Shown here piece by piece: positions 1,241 to 58,660 of a DNA stretch of 64,000 nucleotides. The stretch is from contig OX597818.1 in assembly GCA_951406725.2 (NCBI GenBank), positions 27,652,001-27,716,000 of the forward strand. The letters are read 5' to 3'. How positions within the stretch are numbered: the first letter of the stretch is position 1; the number at the start of each line of letters is the position of its first letter. Made by a program: the position numbers and the translations under genes. The DNA comes from Octopus vulgaris. Its lineage: Eukaryota. A model generated the notes under the pieces. The model was given only the letters and a program-made list of their open reading frames with translations, did not search any database and was not told the DNA's origin.

Positions 1241-1259
1241 GTGTCAAAAACAATAAAGA
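1241..1259 (+). CDS. Host gene micro-exon (19 nt, phase 1 to 2), xVKNNK(D)
   Basis: ttttttcttttatcag acceptor and gtaagt donor; with the 17-nt exon at 4368 it totals 36 nt and restores phase 1. Confidence 0.6.
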
Positions 1260-2090
1260 GTAAGTATATAACATTTTTATTTGTTGTTTATTTGAAAAGT
1301 AGAGAGAAAATTTTTATCAAAAGATTAACTTTTACCATTCATCAATTAGTGATTTTACCTTGTAATATACCTACTTTGGCAATTTACAGAAAGGTTGCAG
1401 CTTAGCTGAGGTTAAAATGCATCAGAAATTTTCTTCCATACATGTTGCTGAAAATGATATTAGCTATCAACCAATAATATTTTGTTTCTTAGTGCTTGAC
1501 TAAAAACACTTATGCATTTCAATGTTTTAATAATCAAATATGCTTTCAACTACAAATTCATTTACTTATTATCTTATAATAATTTATTTAACAATTATTT
1601 GTTTATTTAATTATCAACTGGATGGCATTTGGTTTGAATTTAATGAGTCAGTAATTCGTCTACTATGTCTTATATTATATTAGAAAAGCTCTTATTTAGT
1701 TTAAAATTTACTTTAGCTGCTTTTTCAATACAGCTTCTGCTTTAAGAACTTTTCATTGTTTTTTGGTATATATATTAAGACAAGAGTGAGAACTAACAAA
1801 TCTATTTTTTGGAAGTCCTTCCTGGCCAAAATATTGCCCAAGAAGAAGTGGAGAAATTGTCAAGCTACATTCTAACTGGGCCCTGCCTGCAAGGCCATGT
1901 GCTGTTTATCATGATATGAGATCACCGTGTCATGCACATGTGGTTGTGATGCATGAGTATGGTGTACCCTTATCAGATGGGTAGTCACGATAGATATATT
2001 GGGCTTCATATTTTTGCAACCCGGTGTCACTGTAATGGTGTGCACTGCTCTCTCAATAATAATAATAATAATAATAATAATAATAATAAT

Positions 2091-4018
2091 GGATCCTCGA
2101 AACACTAGCCATTAACAAAGTAGCACCAACAATCATAAAATTCATAGAGCACTCTATGAATAAATGGCAAACAGTCCTACACCTCCAAACAAAAGAGGGA
2201 CTCATGAAAACCAAAGACATCCCCATTAGAAGAGGAATATTCCAGGGAGATACGCTCTCTCCACTCCTTTTCTGCTTGGCACTGTCACCTCTATCTGATA
2301 TGCTAAATAGAACTGGATGCGGATATAAATGTTACGGCAAAACGATCAGCCACCTTTTATATATGGATGACCTAAAACTATACGCTGCAAATGACAAACA
2401 GCTGGAAACACTATTAAAGACAGTTCATGGATTTACCAAAGAAATAGATATGAAATTTGGATTAGAAAAATGCGCCAAAGTAACCATGAAAAGAGGAAAA
2501 CTAGTTAAGAGTAACAACATCACACTAGATGAAGCAAATGAAATAAAAGAATTAGACCAAAGCCAAACTTACAAATACTTAGGAATCCATGAACTAGATA
2601 AGACACAACACACACAAATGAAAGAGAAAATAAAAAAAGAATATTATAGACGAGTTAGATCAATACTAAACACAGAGCTCAATGCTAAAAACAAGATAAT
2701 AGGTATCAACACTTTAGCTGTCCCAGTTATAAGTTACAGCTACAATATCCTTAACTGGACACGAAATGAACTGACCAAAATAGACAGGAAAACAAGAAAA
2801 ATAATGACAGGATCTAGGATGCATCACCCAAAATCTGACATAGAAAGACTATATATACAACGTATAGAAGGTGGTAGAGGCCTTATACAGCTGGAAAACT
2901 ACTATAAAATAACCACCATAGGACTGCAAAAATATCTACTTCAGAAGGAAGGAAAACTGATCCAGATAGCGGCAAAACACGAGCAAAACAAAAAACTGTT
3001 CTCAGTATTTAAGGAAGCTGACAAATACAAACAAGAAATCATACCACCTAATAAACATGAAGAAGAAGAAGATGAAGAAACAACAAAAGCTATAAAAAAA
3101 ATGAAATCCAAACTAAAAATAGAACAGCAACGAACCATGATAAAACGATGGCAAGAAAAGCCCCTTCATGGTAAATACTGGACTAAACTAAACGCAAAAG
3201 AAATAGACAAAGAAAAATCCCAGCAATGGTTGAGAAGCTCAGGACTCAAAGCAGAAACAGAGGGATTTTTAATTGCAGCACAAGACCAAAGCCTCCCCAC
3301 CAGAAATTACCAAAAACATGTAATGAAAAGAAATATTACAAGTAACTGCAGAATATGTGGAGATGGACAAGAAACAATAAATCATATTATCTCTAGCTGC
3401 CCAGTCCTGGCTAAGAAGGAATATATTCACAGGCATGACAGAGTTGGAACTTACATACATTGGAAGCTATGCCAACATTATGGAATAACAACAGAAAAAA
3501 GATGGTATAGGCACACACCAGAAAAGGTCACAGAAAACGAGAAAGCAACCATACTCTGGGATATGCCGATACACACAGATAGAGAAATTAAGGCCAACAG
3601 ACCAGATATAGTTGTCAGAGACCATGAAGAAAAAAATGCTTTCTAATTGATGTATCAGTACCGGCAGATGACAACGTGTCTCTAAAAGAAATGGAGAAAC
3701 TCTCAAAATACAAAGACCTGGAAATAGAGGTAACTAGAATGTGGAATCTGAAAACAGAAACAATTCCTATCATAGTAGGTGCATTAGGCATGATAAAAAA
3801 ATATTCAGACAAATACATAACAAAAACACCAGGACTTACAAACACATATAACATACAGAAAATTGCACTACTAGGCACTGCACACATCCTACGCAGAACA
3901 CTTTCCATACAATAACCATCAGAGCATCACAACAAATCACAGCACATACCCAAGGCACACAGAGCTGCGCTCGGTAGTGAAGTGAAAGCACGCTATAAAA
4001 ATAAAAATAAAACTACTG
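2091..4018 (+). mobile_element. 5'-truncated R4/Dong-like non-LTR retrotransposon (RT, CCHC finger, restriction-like endonuclease) inserted in (TAA)n
   Basis: RGIFQGDTLSP and YMDD RT motifs; CRIC..ETINHIISSC; RHD; RPDIV..D; (TAA)n on both flanks. Confidence 0.9.
2156..3915 (+). pseudogene. R4/Dong-like RT-endonuclease ORF, broken by one frameshift in the A-run near 3630
   Basis: ORF 2156-3646 continues in another frame (CFLIDVSVP..EKLSKYKDL..IPIIVGALG) to 3915. Confidence 0.85.
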
Positions 4019-4163
4019 AATAATAATAATAATAATAATAATAACAATAGTAGTAGTAGTAGTAGTAGTAGTAGTAGTAGTAGTAGTAGTAGTAGTAGTA
4101 GTAGTAGTAGTAGTAGTAGTTGTAGTAGCAGTAGTAGTAGTAGTAATAATAATAATAATAATA
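4019..4163. repeat. Compound (TAA)n/(TAG)n microsatellite
   Basis: Directly visible; explains the poly-Leu ORF 3937-4224. Confidence 0.95.
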
Positions 4164-4367
4164 CTGAGGTTACATAATTCAACAGGATGTCATTTAAATG
4201 ATCTCGTGTTAATAAGATCATCACTCTGAAAATGAAGGAATAAGAATAACAAAAACAACAACAATAATAATGATAATAAGCACTATTATAATTTTTAGGA
4301 TTCTTACTATTTTATTTTGAAAATATTGTAAATACTTAATTTTGTAATTATTTTATGAATTTAATAG

Positions 4368-56715: not shown

Positions 56716-57099
56716 ATATATATATATATATATATTACTTTCATGACCCTAGTAAACTGGATGAGAGAATTAAGCAAAACTAGTGATCATAAAAGTTAAT
56801 TCCCCATGTGGGAATGCAACTAAACATGGATTTAAATAGGATATTTCAAAATGTAGCTATGAAGTGGTTTATTTGGCAGTAAAATTTGGGTCATTAGCTA
56901 TAGAATAATAGTTAATGCATTATAAAATCATGAGGAAGTGGTTGAATTCTTATCATTTTTTCAATTTCATATATCTTTTTTGTTTGCATCTATAATTAAT
57001 TTATAATGCATAAAAGGTTCTATATTTGAATCTAGTAGGTGTGTGTGTGAATCAGCTTTCACTTAGAATGCAACAAAATATTAATTATAACATGTTGGT

Positions 57100-57795
57100 G
57101 ACAGGATAATCACTGCACCACTGAAGATTTGGATATAAAAGCTGCTTTCAGTTGATCAAAAAGAAGATTAGGTTTCAGCTGCAAAGGATCTTCTTGATTG
57201 CATCAAAGAAGATGGAAACCTTTTTAAAACAGTCAAAGCAGGTGACAAGTCGTGGACCTATGGTTATGACCCCAAAACCAAAACTCAGTCTTCACAGTGG
57301 AAGAGGCCAACCTTTCAAAACTGGAGAAAGTCGAAACAATGTGAAGATCCTGCTGACAGATTTCTTCAACTAAAAGGACAAAACTGCATGTGTCCAGTGA
57401 GTGGTAACTCCACCATGACAATGCACTTGCCTCTTCAATGCACTTTGTGCAGCAGATTTTGGCTAAGCACAACATTCCTCAGGTCTAACAACCACCATAT
57501 TCCCCAGATCTCACCCCACGGGGCTCTTTCCTCTTTTGAAAAATCAAAATCACATCTCCCTTAAAAGGAACGAAATTTCAAGACATTGAGGAAATCCAAG
57601 AGAATGTGATGAGGCAGCTGCTCACTATTCCCAAAAAGGGAGTTACAGGAATGCTACCATCAATGGAAATGATATTTGATACAGTGTCCATCTTCAGAAG
57701 GTAGCTACCTCAAAGGAAATTAAATTCTGAATTGATATGTGTTGTAGCTTTCTTTTTATAGCACCAATCCAGATACTTTTTGATCAGGCCCCGTA
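57100..57795 (+). mobile_element. Degenerate mariner fragment
   Basis: GD.SWTYGYDP.TKTQSSQW, HHDNA and PPYSPDL remnants. Confidence 0.7.
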
Positions 57796-58348
57796 CAGAC
57801 AAATTGGACTGAATGTTAGATATTAATAACAGTCAAGGACACTATCATTTGCTTAACATCCACAGTTTATTTACTGGTCACTAATTGGGACCAAGTGTTC
57901 AGTTTTAGGCTGTGATTGTATACAAAATGTATGGAAATTATAAATAAAAATGTGGTACCTGAAAATTTGTAACAGGCTCTCTTATTGTGTTAAAAGCTTT
58001 ATGTATCAGTGAGGCCTATACTAAAACTTTAGATTATTGCCCTAATCAATCCATTCTTACATTATTGTAACTTATTGTAATTTTTACATGTTTTAAATGT
58101 AATTTCTGAGATCATCACTCAAATTTTTTCTTCCTTATGAAGAGCTCTGTGCTTACAAGATATCAATTTGTGCACCTAGTTTTTAAGTTCCAGTCATTCT
58201 AGTATTTAAGCAAGCATGATCTAATATCTAATTATTTTTCTGCAAAGCATGCAATTATTTTCACAAACACCAAACATCAAATAACTGTTTAAGAGATCGC
58301 AATCTTATGTGAGCATCTCATGTACATTTTAATTCTTTCATTTTTTAG

Positions 58349-58660
58349 GTTACCAGTGAAGGTCCATGCTTTTCAGATGAACAAGAATTTAGAACTTAGT
58401 ATTATTGTATATCACACCTTCTAGAACTAAGTGGAATCTTGTGGACAACCCATGTCAGTCTCCTTGTCATCATTTCATAGACACTTTTTGTAAACATTGC
58501 AGGGTTGAGTAAATATCTGATACTACCATAACATTATCAGTCTCTATTATATGCTGTAACTGCATTGCTTTTGTATTCACAGCATCGACAAATACTTGAT
58601 TTATTTTTAATCTTTGTAAATATTTATCTATAACTAAACATTTGCATCAATAAAGTAAAC
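58349..58660 (+). CDS. Candidate terminal exon of the host gene: xYQ* then 3' UTR with AATAAA at 58649
   Basis: Strong acceptor ttctttcattttttag; phase-1 reading GT TAC CAG TGA; unique sequence follows. Confidence 0.4.

Follow-up and report, generated by a model that had tools for sequence, protein, structure and literature searches.

CD22- and PECAM-type receptors as well as nephrin and SYG-2 combine seven to eight immunoglobulin (Ig) domains and a transmembrane (TM) segment with a disordered multi-tyrosine tail containing Grb2, PI3K and SHP sites, a layout that is also found in the octopus genes described here. However, they are encoded by single-copy conserved genes, their tails are not composed of micro-exons with one motif each, and nephrin has fibronectin type III (FN3) domains. 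In this study we analyzed a stretch of 64,000 nucleotides from Octopus vulgaris (G000:C5:27652001-27716000, referred to as the window, with positions counted from its first letter). It contains the tail exons of a gene that is the second of a cluster of seven Ig-receptor genes on contig C5. The encoded tail is disordered, rich in tyrosine and has grown exon by exon. It is the tail of a type I Ig receptor. Probably, though by no means firmly, the seven clustered genes form a paired recognition system in which gene 7 is predicted to be inhibitory and the six derived members, including the window gene, are predicted to signal via arrays of phosphotyrosine micro-exons.

The gene-converted SIGLEC11 and SIGLEC16 are arranged head-to-head (PMC5701461). 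Like the octopus genes, they are clustered Ig receptors with a head-to-head pair in which the N-terminal exons of the ectodomain have been homogenised and the signalling ends differ. In contrast, activating Siglecs are described as using an adaptor with an immunoreceptor tyrosine-based activation motif (ITAM) (PMC5701461), whereas the derived octopus members lack a charged residue in the TM segment and possess long tyrosine micro-exon arrays of their own. Moreover, there is no sequence relationship between Siglecs and the octopus receptors, for which a sequence search of the PDB returned 0 matches. The FcoR genes of Botryllus are likewise a multigene family of invertebrate Ig receptors, with 'core' YxxI/L/V motifs and motifs similar to the tyrosine-based inhibitory motif of immunoreceptors (ITIM), which are swapped by alternative splicing (PMC12582321). 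In FcoR the swap involves alleles and intron retention, and Sushi domains are present (PMC12582321), whereas in octopus each motif is a duplicated cassette exon of its own, with up to 29 tyrosines per tail. The Alr genes of Hydractinia form a cluster within the immunoglobulin superfamily (IgSF) with divergent tyrosine-motif tails, for which activating and inhibitory members have been proposed; they contain an FN3-like segment and strict ITAMs (PMC9546547), both of which are missing in octopus. The octopus cluster would work like vertebrate paired receptors and also resembles FcoR and Alr. It is a member of none of these systems, having no FN3 domain, strict ITAM, charged TM residue or PDB match, and it is set apart by the arrays with one motif per exon that its derived members possess. 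A search for literature on this family and on octopus or mollusc Ig receptors, with most subscription papers outside its coverage, gave no paper on the family and none for six gene ids; no paired activating/inhibitory immunoreceptor family of cephalopods was found in the literature searched.

Results

Joining 24 exons yielded one open frame of 694 amino acids from signal peptide to stop codon. It encodes a signal peptide, four Ig domains, a single TM segment and a cytoplasmic tail of 258 residues and thus has the features of a type I IgSF receptor. The six exons for signal peptide, Ig domains and TM segment are located 25-63 kb upstream of the window (G000:C5:27589297-27626851) in the same frame as the tail. 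This agrees with an earlier sequence-only reading of the window, which had proposed a receptor tail with ectodomain and TM segment further upstream. A LAT-like adaptor, which had been offered as an alternative, was rejected because of the signal peptide and the approximately 409 residues, including the four Ig domains, that precede the TM segment; 22 N-glycosylation sequons were counted. A gene of the receptor-type protein tyrosine phosphatase class with its phosphatase encoded downstream was rejected as well, since a stop codon and a poly(A) signal follow the array. All exons and exon copies of the window given here lie on the plus strand. The array is preceded by a juxtamembrane exon of 19 nt (1241-1259, phase 1 to 2) and an exon of 17 nt (4368-4384, phase 2 to 1) and is followed by the terminal exon (58349-58660) with the last codons, the stop codon (58357-58359), the 3' untranslated region and an AATAAA signal at 58649; the earlier positions of these three exons were borne out. 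The third Ig exon has a GC donor and the remaining exon ends are AG/GT. A retrotransposon-like stretch is found inside the gap where Ig domains 3-6 are absent (G000:C5:27597697-27621466).

Profile searches seeded with the clearest copies were run over the window and identified 21 paralogous micro-exon copies, of which 15 are intact and 6 decayed, close to the roughly 20 segments of 42 and 60/63 nt first noticed. Intact copies are bounded by AG and GTAAG, measure 42, 60 or 63 nt and are free of stops in phase 1, while the decayed ones have lost the acceptor or donor, have lengths of 34, 35 or 47 nt or contain a stop codon. For copies not used in building the profiles the E values were 7e-24 (21229), 1e-21 (27214) and 2e-19 (46522), far beyond chance. 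When joined, the array contains no stop in the phase-1 frame compared with 12 and 29 in the other two, so that the description of exons that are multiples of three with only phase 1 open holds. Two types of micro-exon, A and B, had been proposed and both stand, with the exons encoding YATL/I now set apart as a third subtype, type C.

Type C exons come first (10346-10387, 42 nt, with YATL; 13121-13162, in which tyrosine is lost to cysteine; 13971-14012, with YATI), together with a decayed copy without donor (14921-14955). They are followed by a type A exon in which glycine replaces tyrosine and the asparagine is kept (20071-20112). Thereafter, type B and type A copies largely alternate. A type B exon of 60 nt with two tyrosines and YxxM (21229-21288) precedes a type A exon with YxN (21529-21570), and a type B copy whose family acceptor is AA, where the public model takes an inner AG (27214-27273), precedes a decayed, out-of-frame type A copy of 34 nt (27642-27675). 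Four type B exons of 63 nt, at 31880-31942 (two tyrosines), 36488-36550, 38140-38202 and 39766-39828 (YxxM), are each followed by a type A exon with YxN, at 32898-32939, 36803-36844, 38268-38309 and 40081-40122, respectively. The array ends with a decayed, out-of-frame type B copy of 47 nt (45777-45823), a type A exon with YxN (46076-46117) and two decayed type A copies, one without donor (46522-46563) and one with a stop codon and without acceptor (47003-47044). After the last decayed copy follows an insertion, which we take to be transposase-like, and adjoining it the last intron contains a perfect fold-back palindrome of 369 nt with a loop of 5 nt, nested in an inverted repeat of 717 nt with 99% identity (48599-49341 and 47886-52150). 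Further remnants in introns were judged by eye to be retroelement-like (2090-3915, 4790-5900, 16000-17500 and 43000-45600).

The sequence-only reading had considered the gene hidden and likely to be missed by predictors. This had to be given up, as the last Ig exon is 100% identical to CAI9722592.1 of Octopus vulgaris, annotated as uncharacterized, whose model includes the 19-nt and 17-nt exons, the terminal exon and, of the 15 intact micro-exons, 12. In this model the N-terminus is incorrect and the third Ig domain is cut short, and the type A exons at 32898, 38268 and 46076 are missing from it. The window gene is therefore real and annotated, but unstudied.

The tail contains 47 acidic residues and 19 tyrosines, including 6 YxN, 2 YxxM and 2 YATI/L sites. 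That every micro-exon carries a tyrosine motif applies to 13 of the 15 intact exons. The strict ITAM pattern Yxx[L/I]x6-9Yxx[L/I] was not found in any of the 11 tails scanned. The looser pattern Yxx[L/I/M]x8Yxx[L/I/V] has five matches in the window-gene tail, where five Yxx(L/M)-x8-Yxx(V/I) pairs extend across B-to-A junctions, at each of which the distance between the tyrosines is conserved at 12 residues, as would also be the case simply because the exon lengths are fixed. Moreover, no charged residue is present in the TM segments, which are thus without the feature by which paired receptors couple to an ITAM adaptor.

Public isoform models normally require transcript support. Among such models for three paralogs of O. 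bimaculoides, 19 of 21 pairs differ by internal tail gaps, all of which are sums of 14 and 20 amino acids. Since these are the sizes of type A or C exons and of type B exons, the isoforms differ by exact micro-exon units, which is indirect evidence for splicing. A difference in the last exon occurs in 4 of the 21 pairs and is the sole difference in 2. No RNA run was listed as containing sequence of window positions 36300-40300. No spliced joint between the two exons at window positions 39400-40450 was found in contigs of four runs, whose RNA status was guessed and which covered 2 of the 15 intact exons. A contig of 50 letters from run X13 lies inside the type B exon of a paralog and ends at the last base of this exon; contigs from run X4 cross exon-intron borders of a paralog and this run may therefore hold DNA.

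The cluster comprises seven D2 exons and eight D1 exons at 27.44-29.16 Mb of contig C5, where D1 to D8 denote the eight Ig-type domains of the full-length paralogs. Genes 1-6 carry arrays of type A, B and C micro-exons, and their tails and those of their orthologs contain 8 to 29 tyrosines. In the cluster DNA examined we obtained 100 profile matches, of which 99 were mapped and one lies on the opposite strand, an inverted, intact-looking type C micro-exon in gene 3 (G000:C5:27834104). Gene 7 (CAI9722608.1) has homologous exons of 51 nt with YAKV replacing YxN, one intermediate exon copy in which the motif is YANV, and a YAEL...YADL pair at the end of the tail. Together with gene 6 it forms an inverted head-to-head pair with unlike tails. 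In the stretches compared, the identity of genes 6 and 7 is 98% across the 20 kb surrounding D1 and mostly 90-97% through the TM exon, after which the similarity ends, so that this pair combines similar ectodomains with unlike signalling ends as paired receptors do; the window gene has no close twin. This similarity may stem from recent duplication or from gene conversion. In public annotation the genes appear as CAI9722591/592/595/605/608, LOC106869178, LOC106874069 and LOC115212116, all 'uncharacterized'. For D1 of the window gene a likely O. bimaculoides ortholog was found in the domain tree (support 92/99). As most branches of the domain trees were unresolved, no order of the paralogs is claimed.

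A single Argonauta homolog was found, which has one strict immunoreceptor tyrosine-based switch motif (ITSM) and whose end aligns with the YAEL...YADL end of gene 7. Because of this alignment, gene 7 likely keeps the ancestral ITIM/ITSM-like tail. Genes 1-6 would have lost the ITIM/ITSM-like end and expanded the YxN/YxxM micro-exons. The Sepia homolog has its own, different tyrosine repeats. A homolog search with the gene 7 tail matched only this tail itself. The Ig domains are supported by Pfam, Atlas and fold search, with Atlas pointing to Ig for D1-D2. The structure model of the ectodomain, made for a paralog, had a mean predicted local distance difference test score of 42 and was usable only for D1, D2 and D6, and the fold search barely covered D1. 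In this low-confidence model D2 superposes on V-type domains (Z 9.7, root-mean-square deviation 2.5, 89 residues aligned) and D5-D6 superpose on I/C2-type domains.

Selection on the reading frame was assessed with a Fisher test on the 99 mapped copies of the cluster, which are related and not independent. Among the copies with both splice sites 76 of 79 are in frame and stop-free, compared with 13 of 20 lacking a site (p=4e-4). In 39 intact type A exons tyrosine is kept in 35 and the asparagine two residues after it (pY+2) in 34, with 7 synonymous versus 2 replacement changes in the pY+2 codon. Reading frame and pY+2 asparagine are under selection. Of all domains of the ectodomain D1 varies most, with 37-51% identity between distant paralogs compared with 65-93% for D2-D8.

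Partial duplicates of gene 6, comprising the last Ig exon and/or the tail, were observed on contigs C28 (7.98-8.05 and 10.69 Mb), C31 (6.63-6.67, 6.82 and 9.11-9.16 Mb) and C15 (67.92 Mb) and at 28.575-28.588 Mb of C5; no D1 or D2 match was found on C28, C31 or C15. Distant relatives of the D2 exon with 33-40% identity lie at G000:C5:98.63 and 98.76 Mb, one of them belonging to CAI9723261.1, a short protein of repeated D1-D2-like units. A further copy of the gene 6 tail region, approximately 95% identical to gene 6, is located on the minus strand of C31 (2844000-2885150). It begins 2.5 kb past the last seven-transmembrane exon of an adhesion G protein-coupled receptor (GPCR) with leucine-rich repeats. 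The donor of this exon is in phase 1, and in the public models CAJ1099246.1 and CAJ1099247.1 the GPCR is spliced to the tail. The breakpoint is sharp, and the tail is absent from two sister copies of the GPCR in the stretches examined. The fusion is either real exon shuffling of a signalling cassette or a misassembly.

Discussion

Several observations weigh against a paired recognition system. The labels activating and inhibitory rest on vertebrate motif rules. Strict ITIM, ITSM, ITAM and hemITAM patterns are absent from the window-gene tail, and gene 7 has no strict ITIM either, its terminal YAEL/YADL being only ITIM/ITSM-like. The window gene is without Ig domains 3-6 that its paralogs have, and 6 of its 21 micro-exon copies are dead while 2 of the 15 intact ones are without tyrosine. 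Moreover, the more distant matches are bivalve proteins named nephrin-like and SYG-2-like, i.e. adhesion proteins, with scallop providing the nearest ones outside cephalopods. They favour another explanation, which we consider rather improbable, namely that the cluster codes for adhesion or wiring receptors (neural, sucker or epithelial) that are nephrin/SYG-2-like and whose tails scaffold Nck, Grb2 and PI3K in actin remodelling and whose paralogs serve as cell-identity codes and not in immune recognition. The eight Ig-type domains of the full-length paralogs, a number also known from nephrin, fit such receptors, as do the fold matches of D5-D6 in the low-confidence paralog model, which include contactin, NCAM and DIP. 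However, the scallop relative has FN3, whereas Pfam scans detected none in seven octopus proteins or in Argonauta and the gene models place the TM segment directly after D8. In addition, a dN/dS (ratio of nonsynonymous to synonymous substitution rates) of at least 1 in D1, the loss of domains, head-to-head ectodomains that have been homogenised and the swapping of tails typify immune or allorecognition clusters and not conserved wiring genes. Pooled over six paralogs, after removal of one or two near-identical copies for each domain, dN/dS of D1 was 1.23 (95% confidence interval 0.93-1.67) unweighted and 1.54 (1.18-2.08) at kappa 2, its excess over 1 thus hinging on transition weighting, which is a further reservation; for D8 the values were 0.63 and 0.78, respectively.

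A different objection concerns the tail itself. A crude parsimony count gave pooled dN/dS values of 1.15, 1.25 and 1.52 for type A, B and C micro-exons, and in the window exons diverged more than their flanks in type A (0.26 vs 0.19) and type C (0.16 vs 0.06). Only the 63-nt type B exons were the less divergent (0.10 vs 0.19). The expectation that exons would be better conserved than the duplicated flanking intron, which the earlier reading had itself named as a test that could refute it, therefore failed for A and C. Better conservation is confined to the frame, the splice sites and a few residues of the motifs, and since dN/dS is of this order and exons of types A and C do not exceed introns in identity, the tail for the most part appears neutral or diversifying. 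It might be concluded that the array is mostly neutral tandem duplication in which few sites matter, and that the number of copies and the majority of the 19 tyrosines reflect drift, tolerated as symmetric exons keep the frame. The many decayed copies and the wide range of copy number between paralogs would agree with this. Nevertheless, we regard it as unlikely, as the integrity of the frame is coupled to that of the splice sites, the pY+2 asparagine is constrained, and the separate repeats of the Sepia homolog suggest repeated expansion. That the window gene alone is a decaying or unexpressed duplicate among functional paralogs is very unlikely. Its missing domains D3-D6 and the GC donor of the third Ig exon speak for a dead copy, whereas all 24 exons join in one open frame with AG/GT(GC) ends and D1 has a likely ortholog in O. 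bimaculoides.

If the genes form a paired recognition system, the variable N-terminal D1 would bind a ligand, either a pathogen surface or an allo/self marker, and thereby cluster the receptor. Src-family kinases could then phosphorylate tyrosines in acidic context. By common docking rules YxN sites bind Grb2-type adaptors and YxxM sites bind PI3K p85, and both would be recruited to the tail. The spacing of 12 residues at B-to-A junctions may allow a protein with tandem SH2 domains (Syk/Shark or SHP2) to bind, and the membrane-proximal YATI/L sites could recruit SHP phosphatases; YAKV and the terminal motifs of gene 7 presumably resemble Csk- and SHP-docking sites. For another system, one study reports that multiplied tyrosine motifs strengthen SHP2 binding by divalent contact (PMC6952403). 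Since every exon of the array is phase 1-1 and has a length divisible by three, docking sites can be gained or lost through duplication, decay and skipping while the frame stays intact. Signal strength may hence be tuned through copy number from gene to gene and, inside a single gene, through splicing. Only tentatively do we go further and suggest an octopus paired immune or self-recognition system with one SH2 motif per micro-exon, in which an ancestral inhibitory tail may have been converted into activating arrays by pY+2 change and amplification, cassette splicing would tune the output, and the phase-1 cassette would be portable, one copy having become attached to an adhesion GPCR in frame.

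The cluster provides concrete candidates for paired receptors of cephalopods, and genes 6 and 7, nearly the same outside and different inside, are a direct test pair. It also shows how, within one genus, signalling tails are assembled, switched and lost in steps of single exons, with the short-tailed Argonauta gene as an outgroup. The genes therefore offer a natural experiment on the evolution of multisite phosphotyrosine scaffolds and on whether splicing tunes them.

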